This document shows, one piece after another, positions 13,039 through 42,241 of a stretch of 64,000 nucleotides of DNA. The stretch is from Lophium mytilinum (taxonomy: Eukaryota): contig MU004190.1 of the NCBI GenBank assembly GCA_010093605.1, positions 682,001 to 746,000 on the forward strand. The letters are read 5' to 3'. The position numbers and the translations under genes were made by a program. The notes below the pieces were generated by a model. That model worked only from the letters and a program-made list of their open reading frames with translations, did no database searches and was not told the origin of the DNA. Numbering within the stretch: the stretch's first letter is position 1; each line of letters starts with the position of its first letter.

Positions 13039-14107
13039 CTAATACTCTGCCATCTTGCCACCATCCGCCATAACCATAGACCCATGCATATAGCTCGCCA
13101 TAGAGCTGCTCAAGAAAACGCAAATATCTGCAATCTCCTCCGCCACAGCCAGTCTCCCGATTGGAGGATCATCAGCAATCTTTCTTGCTCCAATCTGTGC
13201 CTCCGACTCCTTCAACATAGCAATGCGCTGTAAGAGCATCGGCGTCTCAACGATGCCCGGGCAAACGGCGTTGATGCGAATTCCTTCTTTGCCGTGATCC
13301 ACAGCGAATGCTCTCGTAACTCCAACCACTGCGTGCTTAGAAACGACGTCTAGGGAACGTTAGATGAGCTTGGGGCGGTCCGATCGAGTGGCTTACAAGG
13401 CATGATGTCTGAAAGAGCTGAAAGACCGCAGGTGGATGCGATGTTGATAATGCTCCCCCGCTGCGCTCTGCGCTCTGGATAGCCCTCGATCGTCACCTTG
13501 AAGGCCTGCTCCCGCATCGCTCTAGTCTCTGCTTGAACGCAGAACATGAGACCCCGGGCATTAACGTTATTGACACGGTCGAACTCAGAGATTGGGTAGT
13601 CGGCCGATAGCGAGCGAGCTGTGCAAGTTACCTAAAACGGTTATTCCACTGTGCCTTCAAAGAAAACATTAGGCTTTATTACCCCAGCAACATTCGCCGC
13701 TTCATCAAGAGACATATGATTAGCCTTTGCTACAAGAGATGCAGACGTCCGGGAAATCTCACCATAATCAAGACTGCCAAAAGCTTCCACGGTCTTCTTA
13801 ACCATATTGTCTACCGACGTTTGATCGGAAACATCAGTGACGACCCCTAAGGTTTTGACATTTGGCCACTGCTTCCCGATCAACTGCGCCGTGTTCGCTA
13901 TGCTTGATTCATCTCTGTCTGCTAGAGCTATGTTTTGGCAACCTCCTCGAGCGTAGGCCAGCGCCGTCGCTTGACCAATGCCGGAACCTTCAAAGGTCAG
14001 TAAAATGCACAGGTCTTGTTCGCATCTGAGCAGCAAGAAATCGTACCTGCGCCAGTCACCAATGCTGTACCATTCAATAAAGCCATATTTTTGGCTAGCA
14101 GAGACAT
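13039..14107 (-). CDS. Short-chain dehydrogenase/reductase
   Basis: ALVTGA|GSGIG, IINIAS, YVVSKHAVVG, IRINAVCPG, ADGG; start is ATG 14107 or 14086. Confidence 0.9.
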
Positions 14108-14463
14108 CCGCACAGACAATGTCTATATCCCAGCGGCATAACGCCCCCTCACGTGCAGTATCCCTCGCTCTCCTCGGAAGCATCGTCGAATGCCTAGCAA
14201 GGGTAAAAGATGGGGATGCGGAGAAAATCTGGGGCAAACAGGGATGCGCGTTTCACCCGCATGTCGCTTCGATTGGCCCGTGCCTTCAACGGGTATCGTC
14301 GTCCCCAAGTTCCGAATCACGTTCCGAACTCTTCGACTGACTAGTCCGGTTCCGAGAAAAGCGAGAAACGCTACTATTGGTCGTTGAATTCAACGTCGCG
14401 ATGAAGCGTATTGAAGAAACGATGTCTGGAGCTTGTGTTGCGGGATGAAGCAACGTAGAGACC

Positions 14464-19325: not shown

Positions 19326-21516
19326 TCAGCTATAGCCGCCGACTTCTCCGGGAAACGAGGCCCAGAAGTCTTGTGTTGCAGTGGCCATGATCGCTTCAAC
19401 TTCAGCATCGGTCATATCGAAGTTAAAGTCCAAATCGAAGTTTGTGTCATTGTAGGCGTGGTAAGACTGTGCCGAGTCGAAGAAAGATCCGTTATTGGCT
19501 AAGGGAGTAGTGGACGGCGGTGATACGAGTTGTGTGCCATGGCCCATGGTCTGTAATATGATTAGCATCGACATTAGCGATAACTAGGTTAATAATCAAT
19601 CGAAGCTTACTTCACGAATGGGCTCTCGTTCTCGCTCTCGTTCTCGCTCTCGGTCTAGCTGCTGCGGTGCTTCCTTACTCTGAGGCTGGACGGGTGACGG
19701 TTGAAGTGCGCCGTAGTCGATCATTGCGTTCCGCAGCACGCGTCGTTCGTCCGGAGAAGCAGGACCCTCTTCGCTGTGCAGAGTTCGGTAGTATGCTTGC
19801 ATGCGCTTGATTGTTTCAAACTGCGTTGAAAATGTGGTCAGTAAAGAAAGCAAAGATGACGAAGAATAGATACGCACCCAAGTATCAGCCATCGGCCACT
19901 GGTTCTTCATCTCTTTGAGAAAAAGACAACCTTGGATGACGCGCTCGCGCGCCTTTTGCGTTATAGCAGGATCGTCGTCATCGCTAGGGAAGTTATAGCT
20001 GTACAGGACCACACCAACAGCAGTATAGATGGTAAAACCAATCCATGGAACGAGACCTCGGAGAAAGAAGACTCCAAATGTACGCATCTCTTCAAGCATC
20101 TCGCACACCATTGTAGCTTCTCTGAAGAGCTCTTTGCGAGACATCCTCTGCCATTGCTTCCAAGATTCCGAATGCTCGTTGTATGATTTGGGCGTCTCAT
20201 CTGAATGACCGTTCTGAGGCCCAAGGACTGGCAGATAGGCGCGATGGAGAAACATGAATGACATGAAATGAATACAATGCATGTAGCAAAACGCTTGGCC
20301 TTGATCGACAGCGTTGTGTGAGTGCAGAGAAAACAAATCATATTGTAATCGTGGAGGAAGAGACCCCTGCCAGGCATTGAGATCATGTATCAGTTTGTGA
20401 AACTCAGACGTTTTTGCCCATGGTAGTTCATTGTTGACGGTCGATGAGCACGCCCAGCGGGCCACCATGCCCCAGATGTTCGCTGCGCGCAAGCTATACG
20501 CGATGATGCCGAGCTCACCAACGTCGAGAGAGATTGGTGGCATCACGATCTGACCGTCTATGTTCTCGCAACATACGGGCTCTCCGAAGACGAAGTCGTC
20601 CTTTTCGCATGGCAGCTGTATCATCATATCCGACGCATCCAGCGATCGCTTTCGACCCTTCCCACCACTGAGGAGGCTATCCATCAGGAAACAGGTCCAG
20701 GCAGTCCTTCGCCTTTCTTCCATCTTGATGAACTCTTCCCGGGTGGGAAGCCGGTCTTTGGGGTACTTTGGCTCTTGGCACAAGTCCAGCATTTGCACCA
20801 TGCGGATTGCCATTCCCAGGTACATCCACGCCCGCCGACCGTTTCCTGCTCCCCAATCGTGTCCTGTGAGCATCAGGAGGGCTTGTACGCGACTAACGCT
20901 CGGTGTCTCGAGGTCGCCTTGTAGAATCTGTCTGGCATGAGCGGCAAACGCGTTGCTGGCTTCTATCTGGCTTTTGAAGGGGGCTGGAGGTTCGCGTACG
21001 AATCTGGCGGAGGTATTAGTCCCTTATCTGGCCAATAGTTGAGATGCCGACTTACCTGATAGCCAGCGCGAGGATTGCCCACGCAACCCAAGTCTCCAGT
21101 GTTTTGTCGCGCATTCGCCGCAACAGCGTCGGCGTGTGATGGAAGCTCCATTTGTAGGAGCACCGGAGATAGCTGTTCTTCACTTCGTCGGTAAGAAGAT
21201 CGTAGGGGTCGAGGGCGGCGACATGCGCCGTCGGGCTTGAGGTTTGCGGCGAGTCTTGAGGGGTGGAGCTGTTGGCATTGGATGGATCGCCGAGTCGACT
21301 GGGTGAGTCCAGAAGAGTTGGTGTATGTCCGGAGGTGCCTGGAGAGTGCAGACGCGGGCGCTTTGGCTGTCGATGGATTGAAGAAGTGCCCGGCGGAGGG
21401 AATTGGCACGAGCTGGCGCGGTTGGTAGCTTTGCATCGATCGCATGGTGGAGCGTCGTTGTGGATGCATTTCTGCTTGGCACTGCGACACGCAATACATG
21501 CCACGGGATTCCTCAT
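19326..21516 (-). CDS. Zn(II)2Cys6 fungal transcription factor
   Basis: MRNPVACIACRSAKQKCIHNDAPPCDRCKATNRASSC; RRAWMYLGMAIRM and EERRRTAWTCFLMD; RE dipeptide run near C-terminus. Confidence 0.9.
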
Positions 21517-22154
21517 GGCGGCGACGCTTTTTGGCAGCGCGAAGGCATTGGAGATGCTAGCGGGGCCGCGATGGTGTTGACTTGGGCTGTCGGCTCGTCT
21601 CGTCTCGCAGCCTTCCGAAGATCTTCGCTGGGAGCTAGGAACCTCTTTCACCGAAGCTACCCCGCCACCAAGCTGCTTTTCTGCCTACCACTCGATATCC
21701 TAATGCAAAGTCATCGATACCAGTATATATTCTGTCCGAGTGGTGCAGCATTCGTTCTACCAGCTTCTGTACTCTCTGCTCCATAGCTCTCAATCAACGG
21801 GTCCTTGCTACAGAGGTACGTCCAGCTGTTTGTTCACATGCACATAGTATATAATCGAGGAAGAACCTTTTCATCTCTCAGTGTTTAGCACGCGTCGGTG
21901 TTTCTCGGAATCATCTATATTATCTATTCGCACCTGTTTCAAATCTTCTATCCTCTCATCTTCCCCTGGTAGTAGTGCAAGACTCTGATTTTAGCTGTCT
22001 AGCGTTCGACATCAAGATCAGGAGCCTAGATAAGGAGGTCGCTTCAGTCCAGTTGAGGTACAGGACAGTAATTCGAAACAATTCTAGCCATCATACCTGA
22101 CTCGCTTTCCAAGGCCCAATTCTCCTTGCTCAGCTTCGATATCAACTATCAACC

Positions 22155-23991: not shown

Positions 23992-25469
23992 GCTTTCTGC
24001 GTCGCCAGAAGCTAAACGAAAGACTTAAAAGATACTGAGAAGGATCATGCAAAGCGGAGAACTAAAGAAATGGGTGGGGGGAGAGACCTAAAGGATGAGA
24101 GCCACGGGAAGGAAGGTTTCATGCTGCCCTGCTAAATACGCTCTATAGCAGGTGTTGGCATCTGACAGCTAGCATGATTCAACTCCTACCATCTACTTTG
24201 GGATTAAACATAGAGCTGCTCTTGGCACGCTAGGAGATCCCCTAAACTCATCAGGTCCGAAGCTGAGCTGCTAAGCGCCGCCTAGCCCAGACTCCAACTC
24301 GATAGGGCTGCAATAACGCGCCAAGAGTGGCGAGTCCTCGCCGCGGAGCCTCTCGCGTAAGCTTAACATCTTATTCCTCCGCTTCTACGTACGTACCGAC
24401 CAAGTTTTGGCGCAGAGACGTTGAGGATGTGGGAATGCAATTAGCATGCCAAGGAGCACCAACATCACAACCAACTCCCATCGTCTGCTTACCACTTCTC
24501 CTCCTCCCACACAGCCATAGAGTAAATACAAAACAACGACCTCTCCCGCTCCTCCCGCGCTAGCATTCTTCAGCCAAGGAACGAGGCGTCCCACTGCCCG
24601 CAAATCTTATTCTGACGGCGAAACGTGCGCCGCAGCAAGGGTTGCTGCGGCCTGCCCCCTGTTGGTGGCCGACGCCTCCTGAGTGGGCACGCACCAGGAA
24701 AAGCGTTGGAGCTGCCCCACCACAGCCTCTCCTCATAGGGCTCGAGGTCAACGAAATTATTAACGTCGAACCGTGCGCTGCAGTGGTGGCGGCTGTTCGG
24801 CGCCTTGGCGAAGGGGACTAGCGGCTGCTCGGCTGATGAAGCGTGCCAAGGGGCTGCTAAATGTTGGGTCATTCTGGGGCTGTGGGTGTTGGTGTGTTTG
24901 GGGTTTTTATTGCAGGTTGGGACATCTTTGTAGAGAGCGTGACTCGTGGAGAGCGGAGGGGGGCTTGCATGCTCGGTTCTGGAAGTTCTGGAAATTGTGC
25001 GACTTGTGAAACTACGTAATTAGGTGCTGGGGAGACGGGCCGTTATCCTGGTGCTGTCTGGGAATGGTTGATTTTGAGGGTGGTCGGTTATATCTAGAGC
25101 TTTTTTAAATTGCTTGGTTTCTTACGCCAAGGAGGCGGGATGGTGAAGGGAAGGATTGGGATCCTTACATGGAGATTTACGCGATGTCCGGTATTTCGAG
25201 ATGTCGATAAGCAGTGCAGGCATTAAATAGCTTTCACTCATGATGGGAAAGTGATGTGGTGTGCTTGATCGTAGCGTCGTTTTCTAGCCTACGTCGGGCA
25301 CTAAAAGCAGTGGGATACCCCGGCCCCTATGAGCCACCTCGAACAGCGCCAACCACTTGTTGAAATCCCCTGTATACACTACACTTACATCTCTACGAAG
25401 TCACTCAAACACCACCATACAGCTATCTTGATATCTATCGAGTTGCCTGGAGTGCCTACATACACATCC

Positions 25470-27830
25470 CCCCGAAACCGTCTAAGGCGACCTGGCGACC
25501 TAGCGAGCTTAAAGGTGGTTCGAAACCGTTTATTTGGGTTTCTAGAAATATCATAAGGTACCTCCTGCGGCGTCAATCAGTTGTATTAGTTGCATATGAT
25601 ATGTAATAGTGGCCTTGTCCAAGTCGACTGAGTGGCTTTTGAACCCTACATGTGTAAATCTATCTGATACCGTCTGAGGAGGCCTCACGAGCTTAACGGA
25701 CCGTCAAACCGGTCCGACTCAGATTCCTAGGAGCAGTACAGGGCACCTCAAACAGTGGCAAGTAACAGTTCTTGGTTACGCACTATGCGGATTATTGAGG
25801 CTATCTGTGTAATCTCCTCACCATTCCTAGTCGACCTAGTTGCTAAAATCACACTCGTGTACCACCGTCTGAGGTGCTTTCACGATCTTACCGGCCGTTC
25901 AAAACGCAATAGCTCGGCTTTCTAGAGTTCGTACAAGACACCTCAGACAGCGGCAAGAGGGGGTTGATAATTACGCATTAAGGTTAGCATATGCTTTGGC
26001 CGAATAGCTTTATACTACTCAGGGCACCCCTTACAGTAGTATCGAGCGTGCAGAAAGAAAGCCCTATCACTGTTATATCTATGCACTAAAATGCATCCCT
26101 TGAAACAGGATATTAAAGTCAACAACAGGGAAGTCAGCATACATTTTGCCTGCACAAGCCCCTGCTATCCAGGCCCCTCTTTACAGCGGCGTCTAGGGTG
26201 CAAGGTAAGCCTCCAACACTATAGTATCTAAGCACCTAACTATAGTACTTCAACTATCTATTACGTGAATGTTCAGGTCAACACTACAGAAATTAGCCTC
26301 CCTTTTACCTACACAAGCCTCTACTACCCAGGGTACCCCTTACAGTAGTATCGCACATCCAGAAAGAAAGCCGTAGCGCTGTAATATCCGTCCACCAAAA
26401 TACAGCCCTTGGAACGGGATGTTAAAATCAACACCACGGAAATCAGCATACCTTCTAACGTCACGAGCACCTAATCCCCAGGGCCCTCCTTACGGTGGTA
26501 TTGGGCAACTAAATACAAAGCTATAGCAGCGCTATACACATTCATGAGGAACTCTACCTAGGATTAGCACACCACATCAACATTGGCCTCAACACCACGA
26601 AAACCAGCCTACCTTTGCACTCCCCCACCCACCTTTCACCCAGAGCTCCCCTCACAGCGGTATCAGAAGCGCAATACGAGAGTCCAAGTGATACCATGAC
26701 CACCTCCTTCCCTCTCATACACCACATCACATGACGTAGTCACAACAACACCCACGTATGTCGATGTCATCAACCCCTTATCGAATTTACTTCCAGTCTT
26801 GAACTCTATATCGAGTTGCGTTCAGCATGCATGTTTACACTGCTTTGACACCACTTGAGGTGGCCTTACTAGGTTTCAGACTGTCTAAAACGCAGTAGTT
26901 CATAATTCAGCGATTAGCACGGGGCACCCCATACAGTGGCAGGAAGCGCTCAATACGTAGGAATTCATATTTTAGAGAACAGCACGAAGCACCTCATACA
27001 GCGGCAGGAAGCAGCCAAAACGCAGCAATCCATATTTCAGAGAGTAGCACGGGACACCTCATACGGTGGCAGGAAGCAGTTAGAACGCAGCAATTCGCAT
27101 TTCAAGGAAATGGCACGGGGTACCCCACACAGTAGCAGAAAGCGGTCAAAACTCAGCATATCGATTTTCGGAAAATGGGGCAGGGCGCCTCAAACAGGGG
27201 TAGAAAGAGGTTAGCCATTCTAGTCTACCGCCGTTTAAGGTGCCCTCATGAGGTTTTCGGCTGTCCAAAACGTAGCAATTTAGATATATGGAAATAGTAG
27301 AGGCCACCTCAGACAGTGGCATCACGGGGTTTGTGATTTCCATCTGATACCGTCTGAGGTAGCCTCACAAGCTTCCCAACCGTCCAAAACGCATCGATTC
27401 AGAATTTAGGAAATAGCACGGGGCACCTCAGACAGTGGCATCAAGGGGTTGTTGACTCCCATCTAATGCCGTCTGAGGTGGCCTAACGAGGTTCCCAACC
27501 GTCCAAAATGTAGGTATTCGGAATTTTGGAGACGGTACAGGGCACCTCAGACGACGGCAAGTAGATGTTGTTGATCACGTTCTGACGCCGTCAGAGGTGC
27601 CCTGACGAGCTTCCTAACCCTCCAAAACGTAGGCATTCAGGATGCTGGAAAGGGCACAGGGCACCTCAGACAGTGGCAAAAAGGGCTTGCTAGTTACGTG
27701 GTGTGTGTATGATGTCAGGTTTTCTACAGTTTTGACACCGTTTGAGGTGCCCTCACGAGCTTTCCCAAACGTCCAAAACGCAATAGTTCAGACTTCGGAA
27801 ATGGTACAGGGTGCCTCAGACAGTGGCAAG
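25470..27830. repeat. Composite non-coding tandem array of a palindromic ~96-bp element and its half-sites
   Basis: Repeated arms (T)GAYRCCGTCTGAGGTGCC and GGGCACCTCAGACAGTGGCA; 119-bp period at 27230-27680, 65-66-bp period at 26926-27187, 150/~160-bp period at 26020-26660. Confidence 0.9.
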
Positions 27831-28024
27831 CAGGCGCTGTCATTTACGCAGAGTGTGTATCATTAGGATCATCGCCAACAACTACAACTTTCAACTACCC
27901 AGACCGCCAAATAGCCGGCAAAGCACTCCCCAACGCCAAAATGCCACCAAATGCCCCCAATTCCAAGAAAAGCCTAAATATACATAGAAGAAAAGAATTA
28001 GAAGCATACCTTCGCATTTATTGA

Positions 28025-28873
28025 TTACAAAAACAGTTCCGGCGCAAATGTGACCATTCCCATGACCGCCGCGTCCAGCCCCTCCTCGTCCTCCATATCT
28101 GACGCGTCGTCCATGCTCATGTCATCAATGTTGTCAAATGTCAGATCTTCCTCCACAAAGTCCCCCACGCTCACTGGACTGTTGTGATAAGTTCCGGTGA
28201 CGGCGCGTTCGCATTTGGTAGTATCAGTGACAATATTCCCCGAAGCGTAGGAGGAGCCAACGTAGAACGTAAGGGTGGCCTTGGCTTGGTGATTCTCCCG
28301 GAAAACCTTCTGCAGAACTGCGACGGTATTGGTGGCGAAGCGTGCGGCATTGAGGCGGATGCGGAGGTGCTTCACAACGCGTGAGCGGATGAGGAAGCAC
28401 AAGGCGTAGGTGAATGGGTGCATTTGAGTCAAAAGGGAGTCGTCGAAGTGGTCGACGATCAAAGGGTGGAGCTTGGAGCAGACTTCGACGCTGACTTGAT
28501 CCAGTTTGAGGTTGGCAACGGCTGGTGCCTTGATAAGCTGGGCTCTGTCAAGCGTAGTGGGCAGATCTGGGTGGTCGGTGCAGAGGGAGATCGCGATCTT
28601 TCGCAGGAAGTGTAGATTTCCGGAGGCGATGGGTCCGAGCGGCTGGGCGGCGTTGCATGTAAAAAGGAACTCGTTTTTCGAGTAGAAGGTTTCGGCGGCC
28701 TGAAGATGCCAGGACGAAGTCTGCATAATTGCCAGCATGTTCGCAGGAGTGGGCGTGTCGACAGGCACAAAGCCGTCAGTAACGAGCAACTCTTCGTATA
28801 CCATGAGCAGGAGCTCAACAGGTATCGCGCTTAGGTAATCCATCTTGTTCTCTTCAGTGGTTCGGGTAGACAT
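28025..28873 (-). CDS. Hypothetical protein, F-box-like N-terminus and acidic C-terminus (282 aa)
   Basis: YLSAIPVELLLMVYEELL, AAETFYSKNEFLF; D/E-rich tail; intronless. Confidence 0.7.
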   Translation of the reverse strand: MSTRTTEENKMDYLSAIPVELLLMVYEELLVTDGFVPVDTPTPANMLAIMQTSSWHLQAAETFYSKNEFLFTCNAAQPLGPIASGNLHFLRKIAISLCTDHPDLPTTLDRAQLIKAPAVANLKLDQVSVEVCSKLHPLIVDHFDDSLLTQMHPFTYALCFLIRSRVVKHLRIRLNAARFATNTVAVLQKVFRENHQAKATLTFYVGSSYASGNIVTDTTKCERAVTGTYHNSPVSVGDFVEEDLTFDNIDDMSMDDASDMEDEEGLDAAVMGMVTFAPELFL

Positions 28874-31098
28874 TCTTGGTGGTTGTTGAGTGTCGCTGTA
28901 GGAGTCGCGATGTAAAGGTTGCGGGTGGATTGAGTGTGGGAGGGCTAGTTGGGCGGTATTGTTGTGCGCGGACTATAGGCTTGGACGACGATGGCGCTCT
29001 GATCAAAGCCCTGTTTATTGAGTCGGGAACGGAACCGTGGTAGCCTATGTGTCCTAAAGTGGGGCACGTGCCGAATGGAGTATCAAGACAAACGCGCTTG
29101 GCAACACGCTACAAGACTTTCCAGCGACTTGAGATTTAGTACGGAGTTTGATACGAATGCCGGAGCCTTGAAAGGTGACGAGATGAGGTGGCGGAGTTGG
29201 ATACATATTACCTGAATCGATCAAAGTCGAGCCTCAATTGAACCGCGGGCCTCGAACGTGTCGGACGTGATGTGGAAGTAGCCGCCGCCAGTAAAGAAAA
29301 AGTGGAGAGTAGGAAGGATAGAGGAACAGTGGTGCGGTCGAGGGAAGGATAAGCCTATATAGGCGTCGGGTTGTTGTGATCTTGCGCGTGCTTGGCAGTA
29401 GCGAGCGTTGAGCAAGCGGGGTTTAACCGGCCGGTCATGGGACAACGTGATCCAACGCGTACTTTGAGAGCTGCAGGCTGCAATGCGGGTTGCCGAACAC
29501 TAGATCTGGAGGGCAGGTGATCTGAGCACGGCCGAAACAGCAATGGCGATAGTCCTCGAGGCAACGCTTTTGATGCAACCTCAATTAGATGCTGCACCTG
29601 AACTCTGTGCCGACTTCAAATTCCTAGATGAAGCACGCGTAGATGGCCTGAGAGCTGATGTGGCAGTAGCAGCCTTAAAAGTGGAAGACGCGACGCCACG
29701 CGGACACGTCTTGAGGTTGGTTGCGTAGGACCTGGAACACATACGCCAGCCCATAGGTCCTGCGGCACGGGCTTCCGGTGTTCGCCTCCCGATTTCTTCC
29801 CTGGCATTTGCCTCGATGTGTGCGACATCTGCCCCACAGCTCCAATCCGTGATGCTTCATCATACTACTTCCCTTCCATAATCGTGGAATCAGAGTCACA
29901 TATAAAAGAGGACGAGGAAAAGAGAAGCTGGAGAACGTAATATGGTAGAAGAGGCCCATCTTGTTCTTGATTTTATTCATTAGGGACAGGAGTCCAACTA
30001 TCTCATCATCTTATGCATTTTTGAGGGTTTTCATTGAGGCCGGTAAGGCGGAGAGCAAGAGGGACGGACTCGTTTTCGCGACGCAGACCCACGGCCAACG
30101 GTGCCGCATAACATGCCCGTGGCTGGTGGGGAAAATGAAGATGCCGGCGGGCACATGTCGATCGCGATGACGGCGTAACGGCGCGGCTACCTCATGACGA
30201 GGAGATGGCGGAAGCCTGAGCATGCTGCGCATCTGATCATATCATCCTATGAACAGCTTAACGTCGAAGATGCCAACTAAAAAGGAGATACTCGTCCCCT
30301 ATTGCTCTACTAAGCGCAACATCCACAGGCAGGTAGTAGAGGAAGCTGCCGAGCGAGGCTATCGCACGCGCACGCGCATCCGCATCATTTGCAGAGTGAG
30401 TTAGCTTGTGAATACCGGCTCAGGTATAGGTTTTGCAAAGTTCTGGGTTCTCTGCAATTAGAAGTACATCACCTGGTGGTATTGACAGGAACAGATGTCG
30501 TGGCCCTGGTAGAAATTGGCGTGGGTGCCGGATCGGATTATTAGAACGCCGACAATGCACGTTCCCTCTTGTCAGCCTCACGTGCCTCAGTACCTTCTTG
30601 GTCGCGCGAAGGTCTCTATCTCTGTCCTAGGCTTCCTTTGCCCTTGCTTAGCTAGAGTAGAAGAAAATGAAGGATCTGGACGTATGTAAGGCTAAGAGAG
30701 TAGAGGCGATGTGTACAAAGACTGAATTAGTTTTACTTGTTTTCTCATCCACCGACACTGAGGAACAAACTGCAGTGAAATGTATTAGGAACATAAGTGT
30801 CAAATCAGTCGAGCCGTTGTTCGAACAAGAGAGAATCATCGCATTTTCCTGTGCTGGTCCTTCCAGCCCTTTCGAAAACCGGCCTCCCAAGCCAAAGCAG
30901 TGCCCGCCAACGAGATAAATATATTACAGTAACCGTAAACCAAGCACCCAGACATTTTCGCTGCGGAGGCCCTCTCACAGCGTATCTAGGTACTGTTTTG
31001 TCCTCCAAGAAAAAGCTGCCAGTATCAACAGGGCGCAGCACTCGATCGCATCAAAACCAATACTTCAAAACACCCACTCGCTCGTCTCGACTCACGTC

Positions 31099-33435
31099 TC
31101 AATGATGGTCTCCCCCTAATAGCGGCGCACTTTCTCCAGCACCGCCCTTGTTCCTTTTCTTGCCAGCCCTCTTCTTGCGCTTCTTCTTCCCGCCGCTCTG
31201 CGCCTTGTCGCCTGCGCCATCAGCGTCAGTATGATCAGCTCCGTTTTGTTTCGAATCCTCGCTTTTGTCTCCAGAGTGATTGCCCTCCTCAGTATCCGAC
31301 GAGCTCGTCGTCTCGAGTACCATCTTCTTGATGCCGCCAATATCTACAAAGTTCTCTGTAATACTGCCACTCCGTGCCGTTGCACGCTTTTTGGGAGCTT
31401 TCGGAGACGATGAGCCCACCGAGTGCAAAGAGCCAAGTGTGCTGGTGGAATTTGTTCTTCCTCGTCGATTATCGATGATGATTTTCGCATCCGAGTCCGC
31501 AGTCTTGGGTCTTTGTGACGCAGGCCCGTCCTCACCGTCGGTTTGGGATTGCGGTGCACCAGAGCTCATGGTTCCGTATCCAACAGCTAGGCTGTGAACA
31601 CCGTCGCTCGCATCGCGGCCCGCTGATTCTAGCAAACCGTCTCCGATGCCGCCTTGGGTCTCATTGGGACTGTAGTGTACTTTCTGGGCGTTTTCTGGTA
31701 TTGGGGCAACGCCTGGCTTGATTTTGACGGTGTTGATGCGGGTCTGCTTGGGCCGTGTTGCCACATTCGAGGGGCCGAGATGCTTGAGGTGTTTCTGGAA
31801 TTCTGGATCAGTGCTACGGATAGGGAATGTTCCGTTGGTTCTGTCCATCGAGCCAGTCCCGCTGCTTCTCCGGCGTATCATGAAGGTTGCTACCTTCGGA
31901 CTGGCAGCCATCTCCGACATCGATGGTTTCGGCTTGTCTGCTCCAGCGATATCTACAGCTCGGTCTTCCGGTACAGTTGTTATGCTCGTGGGCTCGTCTT
32001 TTGAGTGTGCGGAGTCTGCAACGACCTCGCCCTTGGGCACACGAGATCGAGGCGCAGGTGCCATGCGTCGAATAGCTTTATGAACGTCGATGAAGACATC
32101 AGACTCGTCAATGATTTCCCTATGCTTTCGTTAGTGGTTGAGCATCCAGCAACGTAAAGTGAACTCACTCTCCAATCAGCTCTTCAATCACGTCTTCCAG
32201 AGTTACCACGCCAGATGCGCCATATGATTCCCCAGGGAAGTCGGATATAAGGACCATGTGCGATTTGCCCTCTTGAAAGAAGTTAACGATGTCCAGACAG
32301 CTTGTCTCCGGCCTGGTCTCCGGCAATGTAGCTAGCGCAAAGTCTCTAACACGCAATGCGTCCTCCGGGTCATAGGTGATGAGCATTTTAACAAGCAGCA
32401 TGCCGACAAAGTTGCGCTCGTTATCCGGTGAGTATATAGGGATCCTAGAATATCCAGCCGAGAGGATAATATCCATCATCTTCTCATCAAGCACGGTATC
32501 GGCGGACATGGTGAAAACGTCATTCAACGGCGTCATAATGCTACCAACGGACTTATCCTTGAGATCAAGAACAGCGCTGATGATGGTGACCTCGTCCTGG
32601 TTGAGTCGGTCATCTGGACTCGTCCCCAAGGTCTTGTGCAAATCAACCAGAGTCTTCAATCCAGCCTTCTTGTATGTCGCGCCGTGGTTCTTTCCGAGTA
32701 GGTAGTCGAGCAGCTTTGCGATGGGCCAGGCGATCGGTGACATGATCCACATGAGAACGTGGATGGTAGGAGCCAGCATGGCACCAATAGGTAGGCCGTA
32801 GCGCGCGCATACTGATTGCGGAACAACTTCGCCGAATATGACTGCGAAGGTCAGCTAATTATCCCCGAGCAGAGAGCAGAAGACGTACCAATCAACGCAG
32901 TACTGCCCAGTACAGCGGGCCAGCCTCCACCGAGAGATCTGTCCAAGACTATAGGCAGTGTTTCATTGGTGATGGTATTGCTGAGGAGGAGCGTGACAAG
33001 AACCCAATGTTTGCCCTTCTTCAGAAGATTGAGTACCTTTTCCGCGTTCTTTCGCTCGGAACCTTCTCCGGAGGATGCAATGACTTGAAGGTAGATTTCG
33101 TCCTGGCCCATGAGGCTTTGTGGAAGCTGTGTCAGTATCGTGTAGCACAAGAGCTAAGACAAGCGCAGAACGTACGCAATAGTCAAGCCGGCGAAAGCCC
33201 CTCCGAGGAGTACCAGAATAGCAGCAGTGCCCAGATATATCCACAGGCTGGGGTCATCGGCGGGTTTGGGTTCATCTTTCTCCAGAAGCCCAACCGAGGT
33301 TCGTTCGACAGGCGCTCCATGGGAAAGAGGGAGGTAGGCGAGGACCAGAAAGAGGAGGCTGATGGTGGTGAAAGCAGCGGGTCTCACGGAGGCCAAAACA
33401 TTGCGACTGCTCGCAGCACCGGAGGCCGAATTCAT
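31099..33435 (-). CDS. MAM3: CNNM/DUF21-CBS domain membrane protein (Mam3-like)
   Basis: [45 protein letters not shown] pair ([32 protein letters not shown]). Confidence 0.92.
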
Positions 33436-34502
33436 GGCAAGCAGCACAGAGAGCGCGTCGCGCGGATCGGGAACTGCGTGGAAGAAGCACAGGAGGGGTC
33501 GTCTTGGGTATTTGCGACACGTTGGTGGTTGGAGGAGGTGGTAGGATCGCTATGAAAGGCGGCATGGGGATGGGCCCTGTGCTTCTAGACTTCGTTCCCC
33601 AAAACCACGGTTCCGCCGACCATAACTCCGCCGCGTCATTGCCTCATCGCCTGACGATATATTTACAAAATTATCTCCCGAGTAGCGCCAATTGCTCAGA
33701 ACAGATGCAGCTTGCTCCGCTTTTGATCTCCTGCCTTGTTCTGGCGTGCGTCGCGGGCAGAACGCTCTGTGAGCATGACAGAGCCTCCGTAAACCACGAC
33801 CAGCATACCATGCTGTGTCGACGAAAAGCCCGCACTCCACTGGTTCCACCAAATCTGCTCCTACAGCTAGCTCTCCGATTGTTCGCTGAGCATAGATTTA
33901 CGACATCAAACAGAGTTTTCTGCGGCACAAAGCGTCCTGCTCGTTCTTCGTCTATATGCCACATCCGTCATTAAGTCTAGGTACGTGATCTTAGCTTGTA
34001 CTGTACCTTCGCAAGTTGCATTCCCTAATGGCCAATCACATCACGCGGTGACACACAAGCTTCTCCTAGACTGATCTTTGGTCAAGTTTAGGCGGAGTGC
34101 TGCGCACGTCGAGAAGATCAGATTAAAAGCTGGGGCGAGCTGCAGACTTTTTATTCCTCTCTGTGTCTACATAACCAAACAGAAAGAAACGAGGGATCTG
34201 GCGGGAATCTTCCGCCAAGATTTCAGAGATCAAACGAAAATCAGGTGACTTTCACGTGCATCTCGGCGTTGCTCGGTTGCTCGCGGAGCTTTCCGCTTTC
34301 GTTTCTCACCCTTTCATTTCTGCGTGTTCGTAATGACGCGAATTCGTTATATTGCGATTCGTAATACCGAGGCGAAACTGTACATTTGAGGAATGCCAGT
34401 TGGCGCTCTTCGACGCCATTCAAAATTCCCGGAGAGACGGCCGCGATCCAAGAAAAAGGCCGGAAATCAATGTCTCCAATAACCTAAAGTCCCACAAAGC
34501 TA

Positions 34503-36338
34503 CTACAGAGAAATCCGCGAGATCTCAGTGCGGTCGGCCCTCTTTTCATCGATGTCGCTTGCTTGCAGCGGTGGGCTGTCACTACCTAGCGGGGCTGGCC
34601 CTGGTAACGTGCCGTCGAACACACGCTTGGTGGCCGCTTTCCTATTATCTCGCCAGAGAAGCAGCTGGACGATAGCAGTCAGGGCCACTAAGAGAGAAAA
34701 AAGACCGGTCAGCATACTTTCAGTGCCTTAGATGATGCTTGGTGGACTTACTGAGTAGAATTTGCAGGACGATGCACCAGAGGTATCCCTTTCTCGCGGC
34801 CGGGAACTCTGTTGTCTTCCATACAAAATTAGGCGCAACCGCCTGCACGACATACGCAAAGTCGTTGCCCATTGCAACGAGCAACGCTCTCTTCTCCGTG
34901 TCGCTCGAGCAGATCTCGTTGATCCAGCTGAGGATGAGCGGGCCAGCTCCGAAGCCAATATTACTGAGCCAATATACAACTTTACGGCCATAGAGATTCT
35001 CGTACAGCGGCATCTGGCGCATGAGGACACAGAAGATGAGCGAAATGACCGCGCCGATATAAATGAAGGGCCAGCGTGCGCCACGGAGCGGTCCATCGGA
35101 AAGCCAAGCCCACACGAAAGCCATGCCGATGAAGACACCGGATGTGACAAGAGGTAGGTTGTTGATCTGCGGTACAGTGAAATTGGTACCGGGGACGGGA
35201 TTAGGTTTGTGGTTGAAGCTCTTCAGCCAGTATCCCATGGCTGCCTGCGGCGCGCCGTTGTTCCAGAGGACGTACAACATGGGGAGGAGGTAGGTGTGCC
35301 AGCTCGTAAAGATTCGTATGAACTTGGCCTTCGTCCATGGTTCCTTGCCAGCACGTCCAATAGCGTTCATACGCTTGACTGAAAGGACGTGCTCCTCTTC
35401 GGTTGTCCACCATGTCCTCTTCCCGCCCTGGGGTAGATTGGGGAAGAATATGAAGCCCATTATGGCGAGTGGTAGTGTGATAATGCCGTCGATGATGAAC
35501 AGCCATCTCCAACCCGAATGGCCGTCCACGCCGTTCAGATTCTTGTAGGCGGCCGCCTGCAGGAAACCGCTAAACAGCTGCCCGATCGCGCCGGCGAGCC
35601 AAAACACCATAGCCCGTTTGCCAAGCTCTTTGGGTGTGTACCATGATCCCAGTAGGTAATGGATTCCGGGATAGAAGCCAGATCTGTGCAAGCGAGTTCA
35701 GTCTCCAAACAATTCAAGGGTTGAAGGACTCCGGGCTCAAGGATCATGCTTACTCGAATAGTCCTACAAAGAACCGTAAGGCGTAAAGGCCTTGGTACGA
35801 CTGCACAGAAGACTGGCAGATGGTGGCGACTCCCCAGCCAACCTCAAGCTGTAGATACAACATCAGCGGGGTTGGCACAAGAAACATGGGTAAGAAGAGG
35901 CACAAACCGTAGGTATAACCCAGCGTGGCGACACTCGGGTCAGCAGCAGATTGGCCGGTATCTGCCCAATGACATAGCCAACTGTGAAGATAGACGTCTG
36001 GGTCACGAGTTGATTACCGTACATGGACAGGTCTTCCTCCATGCCGCTAAGGAAAGCATTGTTGACATTGTATAGATCGAGATTCTTCAGGAAGTATCCG
36101 ATCTGAGTAACTCCGTGTTAGAAGACTTCTATTCTTTCCCAAGGGAGAGAATACTAGCACTTACCGAGGCAAAGGTGAGCACGAACGCGTCCAACTTGAA
36201 TAACAACCAGCGTTGGTCCTTCGGAAGTTCCCATGTGTCCCAGACATAGCCCTTCCATGTCTTGATAGGCTTTACCTCGATCTCCTCGCCCTCCAGTTCC
36301 CGGCCGTCGAGGCCAATCTCATTTTCTGCGTGTCCCAT
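34503..36338 (-). CDS. MFS transporter, allantoate/pantothenate permease family (Liz1/Fen2-like)
   Basis: LLFKLDAFVLTFAS, GYFLKNLDL.NVNNAFLSGMEEDL, GFYPGIHYLLGSWY, GWRWLFIIDGIIT. Confidence 0.9.
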
Positions 36339-36526
36339 AATGAATTGATGAAATTGGGAGATGAAACGAGATCTTCGGTCGCACCGCAGTTATAATCCAT
36401 GGCACCTCTATACTATATAAATGTACATGAAGTTCAAGATTCGGCCTGTGCTCATTGCATGCAGCAATCACGCCTTCCTGTCACCCCATGCCAACTCAAA
36501 ACTGATATCCGAAATTCTGGGTTCAT

Positions 36527-36758
36527 AAGTTGGTACCCAAGCTAGCGGGTTCGAGAATCGCACCGCCTGCCTCAAAATGCATGTCCTTATCTCGGGAACT
36601 CCCTGAGGGTGTCTATAAAAGGCCGTCGCTCCCATTTCGCAATAATCGCCACATATAACTCATGCTTTAGGGAATCGAGAGCCTACTTTTCGAACCCAAA
36701 CGCCAAACTAACAAGTTGGTTCCTAAGCTAGCGGGCTCGAGAGGGGCATCGCCTGCCT
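36527..36758 (+). repeat. Two ~46-bp imperfect direct repeats 186 bp apart upstream of the MFS permease
   Basis: AAGTTGGTACCCAAGCTAGCGGGTTCGAGAATCGCACCGCCTGCCT (36527) vs AAGTTGGTTCCTAAGCTAGCGGGCTCGAGAGGGGCATCGCCTGCCT (36713). Confidence 0.75.
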
Positions 36759-38519
36759 GTCAGAATGTCTGCATCGTTATCTGTTCCGCGGGCGCCATCC
36801 TTGAGAATCTACAGGAGGTTGCGTTTGTGGTTGCGCAATAATCGCAATATATAACCAATGCTCTAGCTAAGCGAGACTCTACCGAACCATCAGCGAGTTG
36901 ACACCACACCAAACCGGGGCCCACGCATACCCCACCCCCACCAGAAGCTGGATCCATGAGCTGGCTCTGCCTGGAACGCGGACCTGGGGTGATGTATGCG
37001 CCAGACAGCCGGTACTGACAGCCGCAATGCATCCGAGATCGACACGTCGGCCCAGGCACTGGGTATGCAGTGGAGAGGGATTCGGCAAGGAATCGGTGCA
37101 TGAAGAGAGATCCATTTCTTCTCGCGGTGATCGCGGTACGAAGGATATGGTCAAGTATACACGTGACATTCACGTGCTTGTATGGCCCGTGCTTGGTTGC
37201 TTGCGGACCTCTCCGTTTCCGTTGTTCTCCCCCGATCCTCATTCATGAACATGGCCCACCCCATCGTGGCGTTTCTCCGCTCATAATCCGACCCTAATCT
37301 AAGTGAATCTTGTTCATGGCGCTTTGCTGGAACGCTGCGGTTGGGCGACTCGTATCCGCAGAGCTGGTGAACACTCGTGGACCTTGATGGGTGTCTTTCC
37401 GGACGATCACTTCGCAGATGACTTATATTGGAAACAAGCAAACCGAAGCTTGATTACTGGCTCGATTCATCGCCTTGTGACGGACGTCTTTCCGGCGTCA
37501 CACGGATGGTACATCGTAGGGTCATAGGATCAGTCTCGAGGCTGGACCTGTCGGAAGCCACTGCTAGCTACTAGCACATTCACAAAGAAGGCACATTGCC
37601 GTTGTTTCTATTCGATTCCCTGTCTCATCATTATCGTTTTCCGTGTGATTATCGCTATGCCAGCACTTACGGCTTCTTCCATCATTGTCTCTTTTTGGAG
37701 TCGCAGGCGTTGCTTTTCGCGTGCCTTGTATATGCACCTGAATGTTATTCCGTCTTGTCGGGCGAACTTTTATCAGCCGTCCTGAAATGGCGGGGTTCGT
37801 CATACATGAGATATCCACAGATGACTACGGCAACAACGTTGCGCGACATGCTGCAAGCGAGCAGTTGCCTGATCGTAGAGTCAGAGAGAGCTTTGTATTT
37901 GTTAGGTATGTATTTTCTGACGCAATAGGGCTGCCAGGCTCTCTCAGTGGAATCTTAGGTCAGCTGTGGATGAGAATTAATTCGTGGCACATTTCAGCCA
38001 CACCCTTAGTACGTTTCATCTGTACTCACTTCTTACAATGGCAAGGAGCTTGAGCTGGTTGAGCATTCTGCCGAAAGCCAACAGTCTCTTCACAATGGAT
38101 AGTATGAAAGCTGAGTGGAGGAGCAGGCAAGAAAAACGAAGATGGCTTGAATCTCATCTGAGTCTTCACATCGCACTAACTTCTCAAAGTACAGCAGCTT
38201 TGCCATTAGCCATGTGGTCTGCGACCCCAGAGCATTGGTTGCACACTTTTACGCTGCAATACCTACCGCAACCACCATCCTTGCCGTTTGCGGTAATCAG
38301 ATGCCACTCCTCCATTCCGACTGCCTCGTTCTATAAATACAGAGCAGCCACGCTTTCTCAGTCGTGCTTCCGTGGCTGCAACATCTCACTCCGGTCCCTA
38401 CTCAACTTCCGAATTCTAGTAGCTTTGTACCACTGCGCAGACGTCCATACTTCCCTCACATACGCACAGCTCAAATAGTCCACCATTAGCGGCACTTGGA
38501 CCAGGATATCTCGCCAAAA

Positions 38520-39059
38520 ATGCTCCGCTCAATGGCCGCCATGGCTTCCGGCCTCTTCACCCTTCTCTCCCTCGCCAGCGCCCTCCCAACCATCTTCGAT
38601 GCCCCCGTCTCGCTCACTATCCGCCCCGGTACCTCCGCTGACACCTGCAAAATCCTCATCTGCAGCGACCCAAACTCTAGCGGGCAATGCGTCGACATCA
38701 CAGGCCCAGCCGCAGACTGCATCTCCATCGCCTCTGACATCGGACCCCAATAGTGTGTTTACCTCACCTCATCTCATTCTCTGAAAGCAAGTAGCTAACA
38801 CCAATCTGCAGCTCCAGTTCTGCTTCTACCTTCGTGATCGAAGATGGATGCATTTGCACTCTCACCGAGTACGTACTATTCATGTTCTTCATCTCCGATT
38901 TCCGAAGCGTGGTTGGGCTGACACAGTTTTGTTCGTAGTAATGCCTCCTGCTACCAAAATGGGGCGGCCAGGTCGATTAATCTCTCCGGAAGCGGCTCGA
39001 CGAACCTGAATGATGAAGGCTTCGACAACCTGCTGCAGAGTTACATTTGCTTTCGTTAG
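38520..39059 (+). CDS. Small secreted Cys-rich protein (136 aa, 8 Cys), possibly beta/gamma-crystallin-like
   Basis: Exons 38520-38752, 38812-38868 and 38939-39059 splice in frame with GT/AG and branch sites; hydrophobic signal peptide ..LFTLLSLASA; ends GFDNLLQSYICFR*. Confidence 0.8.
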
Positions 39060-39236
39060 GCTATGAGTCTTGGGCCGATGGATACGAACGGGGCGTGGAT
39101 TTGGAAAAGAAGAAGGATGATTATTGGATGGACTACGCTGAGACTCTAGGATCGATCGATTCATACCTTAGGTAGCAGTGAAATGTCTATATGCGTTCCA
39201 AGGATTTATATGTTCGTGTGAAATTGCTGTTCTGGT

Positions 39237-39680
39237 CTGACGCCGTCTGACGTAGCCCGAAGATCAGGCGCGTGTCAAAGTTGCCTTTTTCCGATTCACA
39301 ATAGTATATCAGGGGACCTCAGACGGTGTCAGCCGAGTATCAACAGAGTATGTTTATAGCTGAGATATGTGAAGTCTGATAACATGATCACCTGGATACG
39401 TGATATTGTTCGCCGCTCGGATTTGACGCCTCCTGGCTGGGCTGATTGATCGTAAAGCGGCATCTGTTCTGACGCCATTCTGACGCCGTCTGAGGTGGCT
39501 CGATGAGTTATCAGGTGCGTCAGAGCTGCTCTTTTTTGTTTCATAACAGCATACCAGGGGACCTCGAACAGTACCAGCCGAGCATCCAAAGAGTGGATTT
39601 ATAGCTGAGATATGTGAAGTCTTAAGAAATTGATCACCCGACTACGTGATATTGCTCGCCGCTCTAATTTGATGCCTCTT
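39237..39680 (+). repeat. ~245-bp tandem duplication, each unit starting with the palindromic ~96-bp element
   Basis: Elements at 39237-39332 and 39480-39577 (CTGACGCCGTCTGA..AGGGGACCTC); shared ATAGCTGAGATATGTGAAGTCT at 39356 and 39601. Confidence 0.88.
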
Positions 39681-39810
39681 TGTCGATGCCCTATACAATT
39701 CCTACCCTAAGATCTATGACATTACGTGCGCGACATTCACATCTCCTGAAGCCACTCAAATGCTAGCAAGACCAATAACTGAAAGGCCCTTCACTACCTC
39801 CCACTCAAGG

Positions 39811-40889
39811 TCATCGACAGCGTTTGTTCACGTAGTTCCATTCAAAAGCGTGCAGAACTCCATACAAATGCACAAAAACGCCAAAGACAATAAACAAATG
39901 GAAGATTTGGTGGGAGGCGCCCCAGATGTCGAATTTCTCAGGTTTCCGTGATTCCGGGAAATGGGTCTGCAGGGAATCAGTCAGTCAACCTCTCGCCTAG
40001 TGTTAATGGTATGACCTACTGCATAGAACGCAACCCCGATTATGATGAGCAAGCCTTCTAGGTAATAATATCTCAACCCAGCTTGCTTGTCGAGTTGCTC
40101 ATAGGGAAATATGCTCGCAGCGTGGATAATTGGGGCAAATGCTGAGAATCCAGTGGCCACAAAGGCTAAGAGGCGTACAAATCTCCACTTCTTGCCCTGT
40201 AGACGTGGATTTACTCCGGCGAAGCCAGTCACGAAGCATAGAGTGCCAATCTGGAACAGGGTAAATCAGTGATGCTACATCGAACGCGTACTAAGGCAGG
40301 GAATGAAATTATACAAACTGATGACTTGAAGGAACGACAGTACACCTACCATAGACCAATATATTTTCTGCAAATTTGGCTCGCAATAGAAGCCGACGTA
40401 TATGCCCGAGATGAAAGATCCCAGTATTTGAAAGACGATGGTAACATAATCCAAACGACTCCAAAGCTCGCAAATACGAGCAGAGTGGCACAGCAGCGTG
40501 TGGTACGCCGATGAGATACCGAAGCAGACCACTGAAGTTGTCAAATAAACGTGGAATATGAGCTGATCTTTCCAGGAAGCGTTAGGGAAGTGCGAGGTGA
40601 AATATTGGGCCAGAATGCAGTTGCCCAGCAAAGCTAAGACCGTGGGAACCAGGTGCGAGTAGATGTTCACCGTCTCGTTATGAGGGTACGTTAGGCTTCG
40701 GAAGCAAAGATGTGTAGACGTTGTGACTGGTCGATAACCAGTGCGGATATAAGCATTATGGGCATACCAAGAGGGCACTTGGTCCCTGTTGAGCAGTCGC
40801 CGGGTGGAGCTGTTTTCGCGCAACTTTGGGGCATTATCTCGGGCCGGCTCGCTCTTAGCGGCTGGGGACAGCCTTCTGGGCGATGCCAT
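39811..40889 (-). CDS. PAQR/hemolysin-III family membrane protein (IZH/adiponectin receptor-like)
   Basis: NAYIRTGYRP, HNETVNIYSHL, SSAYHTLLCHS, LDY, FPE..PEKFDIWGASHQIFH. Confidence 0.92.
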
Positions 40890-41081
40890 ATGTAGCAGAC
40901 TCCAGAACTCGAAGAGAGATCTGGGGGAGATAGACCTGGCACAACAATGTCGGAGAAGAGAGCTAGGGAGGAAGTATAGCAGAGAAAGAATCAGACCCGA
41001 AGTCGATGACTGGTTCAGCCTGAGTCCTGACCCTACTACCACCTACCGCCATAGCTCGAATGTGTTGATTCGCCTGGTGTT

Positions 41082-41849
41082 GTGCTGAGGCCACGGGTCT
41101 GGGCACGCCCCAACCTTAGACCAGAGCTGCCCGTTACAATGGTACCTGTCCTTCGAAGAGCTAGTCGTATCGCGGCACGTCCTTACCGACAAACACCCTT
41201 GGACTTTGTCGACGATCTCAAACCTAGCTGGGCGTTAAACGTCCAGACTTTCATGAAGATGCCCGTTGGACCATCCGAGCGGCCCATACAAAGAATCGGC
41301 GATACCTGGCTTCCGTGGTTGACTTGGACGGAGAGGACCTGTCTTTGTTTAGCTACGATGGTATATTCAGCGATTCATTTGAGCGGTTGGAACTTCCACT
41401 TTCCAACCCGCACCGAGCAGATCCTGTGGCGTGTATCGAGCCTCATCTTACTGGGGGCAACATCGGTATTCTGGCTGCTTAAATGTCCAGCGATAATATG
41501 GCGACATCACGGCGGCCAGGAGCTCTTCGTGCGATTCTTCACCAGGAAGAGTAATCCTCCCGCAGTAGAACCCACGACTGCGAAGTCTGACCCCAACACT
41601 GCAGCTTTGCCTAGGCAGGATTCCGCCAAGCTGGACACCGTTGAGTCACAGCAAAAATGTTTGCACGAAACCCCTTTCGAGCCTCGAGAGCTGCCATTGG
41701 TATGGGAATTCTGGGGCATCTTTCCGGTTGCCTTCATATATGCCCTGGCCCGGTTTTACATTGTCGTTGAATCTATTCTAAGCTTAAGGTCTTTGCCTTT
41801 GACGGCATATCTTACGGTGGACGGGTCTTCATTCATTCCCAACATCTGA
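41082..41849 (+). pseudogene. 5'-truncated fragment of an uncharacterised fungal multi-pass membrane protein
   Basis: C-terminal motifs YSAIHLSGWNFHFPTRTEQILWR and YALARFYIVVE..LRSLP..AY.TV; no room for an N-terminal half before the divergent PAQR start at 40889. Confidence 0.55.
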
Positions 41850-41943
41850 ATTACGATCAGGCTCGTCCAAAATATGTAGAGTCGAGGGAAGGCTTCACCT
41901 TAAACGTATTTCCCTACTATTTATGTGCTTCTTTACCCTTGTT

Positions 41944-42038
41944 TGACACTACTTGAGGTCCCCTAATATGTTATTGCGAATCAGAAAAGAGCAACTCTGA
42001 TACACCTGATAGCTCATCGAGCCACCTCAGACAGCGAA
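41944..42038 (-). repeat. Inverted copy of the palindromic ~96-bp element
   Basis: Aligns end to end with the reverse complement of 39480-39577 (GAGGTCCCCT..AAAAGAGCA.CTCTGA..CACCTGATA.CTCATCGAGCCACCTCAGAC). Confidence 0.88.
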
Positions 42039-42241
42039 GATAAGGTAGAAGGCGGAGAGGAGGGCGGAGATAGGAGAATCTAGCTGTAGGAAGTAATGTC
42101 TTAGCTGCGGAGGAGATAGCTGGTCCCTTCAGCAGTGGAATAGAAGGAGGCATTTGAGTGTTGAAGAAAAGGCATGGTGGTATACTTTGATCCCTAGATG
42201 TGCTGCTGGAATCCAATATTAAACCAAAAACCGCTAGTAGT

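Follow-up and report, generated by a model that had tools for sequence, protein, structure and literature searches.

Miniature transposable elements with inverted repeats (MITEs) of fungi are the closest described counterparts of the element considered here. In the portions of the Epichloe account that bear on them, the EFT families of Epichloe festucae, Guest of Neurospora and mimp of Fusarium are short, non-coding elements that lie between or near genes and end in terminal inverted repeats, and their copy number is low by plant standards (PMC3227409). The same portions describe MITE copies as 'homogeneous in size', give pairwise identities of 62-83% for degenerate Epichloe families, and record sub-families that share the terminal inverted repeats alone and have dissimilar interiors, with a target-site duplication that is sometimes unclear (PMC3227409). 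A second set of counterparts is formed by satellite-like arrays derived from MITEs or Helentrons, in which a small non-autonomous element, or part of one, has been amplified head to tail and scattered through euchromatin; as far as the relevant sections of one review go, MITE-derived arrays are known in animals and plants, and the word 'fungi' is absent from its main text (PMC9659126). Here we describe a family of palindromic units of ~98 bp in a 64,000-nt stretch of the Lophium mytilinum genome (assembly GCA_010093605.1, contig MU004190.1, positions 682,001 to 746,000; hereafter the window, numbered from its first letter). We think it somewhat more probable than not that these units are a decayed MITE-like or foldback repeat family of this Dothideomycete, secondarily amplified in tandem.

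The units share with the fungal MITEs their short, non-coding, intergenic character, their terminal inverted repeats, a similar divergence (58-77% pairwise identity between copies, against the 62-83% reported) and the occurrence of sub-families with common ends and different interiors. Unlike them, they lack a detected target-site duplication and have no known parent element, their length is much tighter than in the Epichloe families, and most copies in the window stem from local tandem duplication (comparison with the passages of PMC3227409 cited above). With the satellite-like arrays they share head-to-tail amplification, here of whole units (119 bp) as well as half-units (65 bp); the arrays in the window are tiny (4-5 units), old and set in a fungal host. 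If this reading holds, what the window contributes is a MITE-like or foldback family not characterised before, together with a minor instance of an element turning into a minisatellite, in a little-studied set of fungi, the relatives of Mytilinidion; this would be useful for repeat annotation and masking and otherwise unsurprising.

The family first drew attention as pairs of inverted arms separated by a seemingly invariant spacer. All 12 reported arm pairs were found again. Counted between the last letter of GAGGT and the first of ACCTC, the separation is 64 nt in 10 of the 12 (25680/25745, 25875/25940, 26861/26926, 27241/27306, 27360/27425, 27479/27544, 27598/27663, 27748/27813, 39496/39561 and 41959/42024; copies are named below by the first of these positions), 62 nt at 39253/39316 and 71 nt at 25488/25560. 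The excess in the last copy had been ascribed to an 8-nt GGCGACCT duplication, which is present; its removal leaves 63 rather than 64 nt, so that a second change of 1 nt is required. Some arms are degenerate, including GAGGA at 25680, ACCCC at 26926, GCCTC at 27813 and AAGGC at 25488, and those of copies 25488, 26861 and 41959 are badly decayed. Recurrence of the arm pair is nevertheless far above what chance would give: three instances of the exact pattern CCGTCTGAGGT-N50..80-ACCTCAGAC were counted, where 100 shuffles lead one to expect 0.00, and GTCTGAGGT occurs 11 times against a shuffle mean of 0.55 and a shuffle maximum of 4.

The inverted repeat is longer than the arms first recognised, continuing inward for ~4 nt (GSCC/GGSC) and outward for ~6 nt (TGAYRC/GYRTCA). 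This makes the unit ~98 bp long, of the form TGAYRCCGTCTGAGGTGSCC ... GGSCACCTCAGACRGYRTCA, with a ~17-nt arm, a 64-nt spacer and a second ~17-nt arm, and leaves fewer than 64 nt in its middle that are truly unpaired. Pairing holds in 75.2% of cells over 21 arm positions, as against 30-48% when the partner is slid by 1-3 columns, and the arm motif is present on both strands. At ~98 bp the unit falls well inside the range of short non-coding elements with terminal inverted repeats that are called MITEs (<500-800 bp), and the open reading frames (ORFs) that cross copies (26918-27214 and 39354-39641) have no Pfam family. Copies from 25-28 kb are referred to as family 1 and those from 39-42 kb as family 2. 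The units and the repeats built from them are as follows (TRF, Tandem Repeats Finder).

25469..25579, plus strand: degenerate family-1 copy, 71-nt spacer with the 8-nt GGCGACCT micro-duplication (x2.6); nhmmer E 3.6e-07, fold z +1.58
25661..25764, plus strand: family-1 copy, 64-nt spacer; nhmmer E 3.1e-32
25856..25959, plus strand: family-1 copy, 64-nt spacer; nhmmer E 7.4e-34, fold z -2.87
26013..26700, plus strand: four to five direct repeats of ~151-161 bp that each begin with an arm-B-like motif; direct-repeat families D3 and D4
26842..26945, plus strand: family-1 copy, 64-nt spacer, whose right half opens the half-unit array; nhmmer E 3.1e-32
26887..27214, plus strand: five half-units of 65-66 bp (right spacer half and arm B, no arm A); TRF period 65, 4.2 copies
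27211..27697, plus strand: four 119-bp tandem units, each with a full copy and a 64-nt spacer; TRF period 119, nhmmer E 8e-34 to 9e-38
27729..27832, plus strand: family-1 copy, 64-nt spacer by way of a +1/-1 compensated indel pair; nhmmer E 5.8e-34
39234..39335, plus strand: family-2 copy, 62-nt spacer, unit 1 of a 243-bp tandem duplication; fold z -3.18
39336..39440, with a second copy at ~39581-39680, plus strand: ~105-nt tail co-duplicated with the family-2 copies; alignment
39477..39580, plus strand: family-2 copy, 64-nt spacer, unit 2 of the 243-bp duplication; gap measurement and alignment
41940..42043, minus strand: family-2 copy, inverted, 64-nt spacer; 52/64 spacer identity to copy 39496 after reverse complementing

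A profile built from the eight 25-28 kb copies and run on the window at E up to 10 matched in only three places, 25.47-27.85 kb, 39.23-39.59 kb and 41.93-42.04 kb (31 of 31 rows). The first is a 2.4-kb composite cluster that holds nine of the 12 copies, all in one orientation: eight strong profile matches and a weaker one at 25472-25583 lie on the plus strand of 25.47-27.85 kb, an arrangement with a two-sided p of 0.004 under random orientation. Nine copies that share one locus and one orientation point to local duplication rather than to independent insertion. The original prediction had called the element dispersed; the recurring arm pairs are real, and within the window they occupy three places only and include many local tandem duplicates.

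Besides the solo copies 25680, 25875 and 27748 and the degenerate copy 25488, the first locus contains three kinds of array. The 119-bp array carries full copies at 27222-27325, 27341-27444, 27460-27563 and 27579-27682, spaced by 119, 119 and 119 nt, with linkers of constant length. The right half of copy 26861 continues into the five-unit array of half-units that lack arm A, with arm-B motifs at 26922, 26987, 27052, 27118 and 27183 and unit lengths of 65, 65, 66, 65 and 66 bp. The ~155-bp units measure 155, 154, 151 and 151 nt and carry arm-B-like motifs, among them those at 26022 and 26331; this filler is a dispersed repeat related to the palindrome, since pieces of it (26413-26502 and 26639-26711) recur on other long contigs of this genome.

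At the second locus, which occupies 39228-39720, a family-2 copy and its ~105-nt tail are duplicated in tandem (243 bp). The tail segment 39363-39403 is also found on another contig, and the tail ends in a degenerate solo left arm at ~39424-39443. An 11-nt duplication (x1.9) at 39467-39487 repeats the outermost left terminus of copy 39496 and directly abuts the element. The third locus is the solo copy 41959, which is copy 39496 inverted: 52 of the 64 spacer positions are identical after reverse complementing, and the 39-42 kb class is one sub-family. Copies 39496 (plus) and 41959 (minus) bracket ~2.4 kb that include an HlyIII-like gene (39981-41042, minus strand) and an ORF at 41055-41849; the arrangement is composite-transposon-like, and no flanking duplication was seen by eye.

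With these relations in hand, the constancy of the spacer can be judged. The original prediction had reasoned that a length conserved without sequence conservation implies a geometric constraint, and this step is not established by our analysis. About three independent placements and two spacer lineages underlie all 12 copies. Moreover, the spacers at 25-28 and 39-42 kb, which had been thought barely alignable, still match in register at 19-21 of the inner 48 positions: the family-1 consensus has 19 and 21 matches with the family-2 spacers (permutation p 0.014 and 0.002), whereas in the opposite orientation there is no signal (p 0.27-0.37). Since the two lineages are homologous in register, equal length follows from common descent without net insertion or deletion. 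Internal controls behave similarly: all linkers of the 119-bp array have the same length (3 of 3), and deviation in length affects 2 of 14 known spacers (the 12 in the window and two rebuilt from other contigs) and 4 of 9 control units (Fisher p 0.16). Neighbouring repeat units, that is the 65-bp units, the ~155-bp units and the linkers, thus hold their length nearly as well as the spacers do. Repeat-induced point mutation (RIP) was considered as a source of substitutions without indels and was ruled out, as the eight copies compared with their consensus show 100 transitions to 80 transversions; the divergence is not RIP-like, and RIP therefore does not explain why substitutions are many and indels few. 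Together, these measurements indicate that the constant 64-nt spacing stems largely from non-independent copies and shared ancestry, and the case illustrates how a striking 'invariant spacer' can arise from copies that are not independent.

A course of events consistent with this structure can be outlined. The arms would be the terminal inverted repeats of an old, low-copy, non-coding palindromic DNA element of ~98 bp, non-autonomous in kind, which would have given rise to two sub-families with common ends and interiors that drifted apart. After its arrival, local tandem duplication or unequal crossing-over may have produced the units of 119, 65, 243 and ~155 bp, and at the first locus such local amplification would have built the 2.4-kb satellite-like cluster. 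The 64-nt spacing would then be mainly inherited, from one ancestor of that length, with substitutions far outnumbering net indels and with many copies being duplicates of their neighbours.

Several observations weigh against this account. Neutral decay of a local duplication does not predict conservation of the arms in the 119-bp array, whose units are presumably of equal age; there, the 11-nt arm cores show 5 changes in 88 cells, compared with 72 in 388 for spacer and linker (Fisher p 0.002), and across the eight family-1 copies 14 of 176 arm-core cells are changed compared with 129 of 512 (p 3e-07). The spacers show 31 gap events per 581 substitutions and the neighbouring units 61 per 436, a lower rate in the spacers; this comparison, made with one aligner, is descriptive only, since the pairwise sums are non-independent and equal lengths bias the aligner and force paired gaps. 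Copy 27748 has a clear pair of compensated +1/-1 indels 30 nt apart, so that 35 matches without gaps rise to 49 with two gaps. Degenerate Epichloe MITE families are far more variable in length, for example 109-177 bp, in the portions of the account that describe them (PMC3227409). Further, no target-site duplication was found at symmetric boundaries in the 12 copies (offsets 0-30, lengths 2-10), nor in the seven non-tandem copies when matching was relaxed or the boundaries were allowed to be asymmetric; there, mean flank identity outside the arms never exceeds 0.36 for k >= 8; this failure is weak evidence, as the copies are old, their termini are uncertain and a duplication of 2-3 bp is erasable. 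Finally, neither an autonomous element with these ends nor a transposase is present in the window.

The arm conservation calls for an explanation of its own. Arm divergence is about three-fold lower than that of spacer and linker within the 119-bp array, and the half-units, too, have kept the arm-B motif better than any other part. Because arm B is kept in half-units that lack a partner, the arms are conserved as sequence, independently of the partner and of the 64-nt distance. Such conservation may reflect selection at copying, if only units with good ends were copied again, conversion from other copies, or protein binding. The most plausible nature of the arms is that of a transposon-end type of signal, namely terminal inverted repeats; this part of the earlier interpretation is supported by arms conserved above their surroundings, and the geometric constraint that accompanied it is the part that was not established.

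That constraint is the substance of an alternative in which the arms serve as a sequence-specific site that is still selected in place, may be recognised by a host protein or by a domesticated transposase, and has a functionally constrained distance of 64 nt, the geometry-constrained bipartite site of the original prediction. We regard this as unlikely. It would account for the three-fold lower divergence of the arms even in the equal-aged array, for 12 of 14 spacers being exactly 64 nt despite 58-77% pairwise identity, for the one clear compensated indel pair and possibly more (copy 25680 may also carry such pairs), and for the position of all three loci at a similar distance downstream of gene stops. 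Yet arm-B motifs are similarly conserved in 65-bp half-units that have no arm A at 64 nt, linkers and control units keep their length about equally (2 of 14 against 4 of 9, p 0.16), copies with spacers of 62 and 71 nt occur, the arms are badly decayed in several copies, and only two spacer lineages are sampled. A gap of 64 bp would also probably be too stiff for a simple dimer without looping. The residual case for constraint rests on in-place arm conservation and compensated indels.

A more specific form of the idea, in which the arm pair is a living recognition signal kept by in-place selection and the 64-nt distance is restored by compensating indels, seems to us a shade more doubtful still. 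Were it true, it would suggest an undescribed recombinase, transposase or host-protein system of Dothideomycetes able to read two inverted sites, either spaced at a fixed distance or extruded as a single stem, and able to place units head to tail without target-site duplication. Were arm conservation and compensated indels to hold genome-wide, they would point to a bipartite palindromic site read by a system that is active or has been domesticated.

The decayed MITE-like reading takes the arms as ends on which a transposase acted. Because there is no autonomous partner or transposase in the window, we infer such mobility rather than observe it; the absence of a transposase or recombinase gene, as first reported, was confirmed in the 53 ORF translations checked. 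The lack of a detected target-site duplication is also why we use the term MITE-like and stop short of classing the element as a MITE.

The same lack is what would be expected if the units were a non-autonomous, array-forming element that inserts without target-site duplication, either of Helitron or Helentron type or belonging to another system that recognises single-strand hairpins, with the palindrome as the recognition hairpin. Helitrons and Helentrons are marked by a 5'-TC and a 3'-CTRR, or in Helentrons by sub-terminal repeats and a 3' hairpin, and insert between A and T or T and T without duplication. Tandem arrays borne by Helentrons are reportedly documented in oysters and Drosophila. 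This origin is improbable in our estimation. In its favour are the absence of duplications (12 copies, and seven non-tandem copies with relaxed matching), the head-to-tail tandem units with their co-repeated linker, and joints on other contigs that set arm B before arm A (27073 to 39481 and 27440 to 27590). However, the flanks show by eye no consistent 5'-TC or 3'-CTRR ends and no consistent A-T or T-T context, in what are too few independent insertions for a judgement, no Rep or helicase is encoded among the 53 ORF translations of the window, the hairpin is not maintained by covariation, and unequal crossing-over explains the arrays equally well.

Covariation was assessed in a 10-copy alignment. 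The 21-pair arm stem is paired in 75.2% of cells, compared with 77.0% in column shuffles, and 484 of 500 shuffles reach the observed value; two-sided, compensatory changes in the stem are likewise no commoner than in shuffles. In the absence of any excess over column shuffles, complementarity appears to be inherited column by column and not maintained by compensation. Homogenisation of the two arms on a hairpin template was ruled out on the same ground. When folded as single-stranded DNA, four of the 12 copies clearly beat their shuffles (z -6.0, -3.2, -2.9 and -2.8), and the remaining eight range from z -1.7 to +1.6, a wide spread that fits decaying copies. Self-complementarity of the whole spacer is not significant for the family-1 consensus (22 of 64, p 0.14), and three single copies give p 0.009-0.02. 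The suggestion that the palindrome acts as a hairpin or structured RNA thus finds no support in pairing, covariation or folding.

These data bear equally on the view that the units are genes or precursors of structured RNAs, such as a cluster of microRNA-like hairpins or other small RNAs, which we hold to be very improbable. Four of the 12 copies do fold into long hairpins, and contigs of sequencing run X3 that contain spliced gene joints also bear repeat joints from other loci. Against this, Rfam has no match that reaches the gathering score, and relaxing the cut-off to E 5 yields just three weak rows (E 0.36 to 3.4), two of which lie off the copies; the bxd_6 row (E 0.75, 27425-27504) overlaps family-1 copies and is taken as chance. 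There is no covariation, eight of 12 copies fold not clearly better than shuffles, and the copies stand in both orientations relative to neighbouring genes. ARAGORN found no tRNA, and the units thus belong neither to a known structured RNA family nor to the tRNA-derived SINEs.

Introner-like elements of Dothideomycetes are a further comparison, as they are multi-copy, similar in size, predicted to have stable secondary structure and found in the same class of fungi, according to the part of their description that concerns these features (PMC4457414). By contrast, they are spliceosomal introns inside genes in the corresponding parts of both accounts (PMC4457414; PMC3609843), and the copies here are intergenic and partly tandem. 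An introner-like identity was ruled out: the copies lie between genes and outside ORFs with Pfam matches, no spliced joint of run X3 falls on a copy, and the portions of the account that bear on such elements contain nothing similar (PMC4457414). The arm start GTCTGA is by eye a poor splice donor, judged against the donor consensus.

Copies of the family also lie outside the window. Contigs of two sequencing runs that contain the whole stretch, and may stem from the source sample, were compared with 24.5-42.5 kb at 80% likeness, and in run X1 26 of the 29 placed contigs match only partly. Such partial matches sit on different long contigs (for example 26413-26502, 26639-26711, 39284-39324, 39363-39403 and 39479-39538), and at 27733 and 39479, where left arms have their outer limits, loose contig ends begin. 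Two copies from other loci could be rebuilt from contig joints; their spacers are 17+37+10 = 64 nt and 26+6+32 = 64 nt, the latter verified against the record coordinates. With these, 12 of 14 known spacers are exactly 64 nt. The joints of 27073 to 39481 and of 27440 to 27590 put arm B ahead of arm A, which means that the tandem arrangement is not limited to the locus in the window. The family is therefore dispersed beyond the window, and its copy number looks modest; in copy number and size it comprises three loci in 64 kb and partial matches elsewhere, with the homogeneity of size that the spacers display.

Searches further afield gave nothing comparable. The exact pattern, which recovers only three of the 12 window copies and so makes an insensitive probe, matched five loci in metagenome contigs in a cross-species scan; with spacers of 69, 70, 59, 70 and 65 nt, two of them identical in sequence, and GC-rich, unrelated interiors, they were judged to be chance. 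A literature search for four arm 10-11-mers yielded, among the matches listed, only unrelated and mostly biomedical papers, and within the literature on transposable elements of Mytilinidion, Lophium and Glonium the Cenococcum genome paper contains no occurrence of 'MITE' (PMC12910237).

All copies are non-coding and intergenic. Each of the three repeat loci is found 190-420 nt downstream of a stop that ends a minus-strand gene: copy 27748 is ~190 nt downstream of the stop of the ORF at 28025-28972, and copy 41959 is ~200 nt downstream of that of an amino-acid permease gene recognised by Pfam. The genes whose stops adjoin the loci are the ORF at 28025-28972, the HlyIII-like gene and the permease, with 27824-27832, 39981 and 42242 as the window positions concerned. 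The window is nuclear ascomycete DNA. Besides the amino-acid permease and the HlyIII-like gene it encodes an MFS transporter, an ERT1/acuK PAS protein and several Zn2Cys6 'Fungal_trans' regulators. Identity of the acuK-like ORF is 93% with a protein of Mytilinidion resinicola and 60% with a Glonium stellatum protein, which places the host among Dothideomycetes near Mytilinidion.

Stretches of 47-70 nt with GT..AG borders (CT..AC for the minus strand) are missing from contigs of run X3 that show no further difference from the window, so that X3 behaves as spliced RNA from the same or a near-identical strain. Spliced joints occur at 32118-32168, 32841-32889, 33115-33176, 34706-34767 and 38868-38939, none of them on a repeat copy, and mark introns of a CNNM/CBS gene, an MFS gene and a plus-strand gene that ends at ~39.1 kb. 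Cover by X3 contigs is little or none at 25.7-26.9 kb and none at 40.7-41.9 kb, which we do not read as evidence on expression. One X3 contig ends at 27824, in the right arm of copy 27748; contigs break at repeats, and so no transcript end is inferred from it.

Farther from the repeats, three ORFs with a fungal-specific transcription factor domain and one with a Zn2Cys6 cluster lie at 2091-6646 and 19596-21684. They adjoin ORFs resembling short-chain dehydrogenases and flavin monooxygenases (7304-10326 and 13641-14252), and together these regulator, dehydrogenase and monooxygenase ORFs may form a small metabolic gene neighbourhood.

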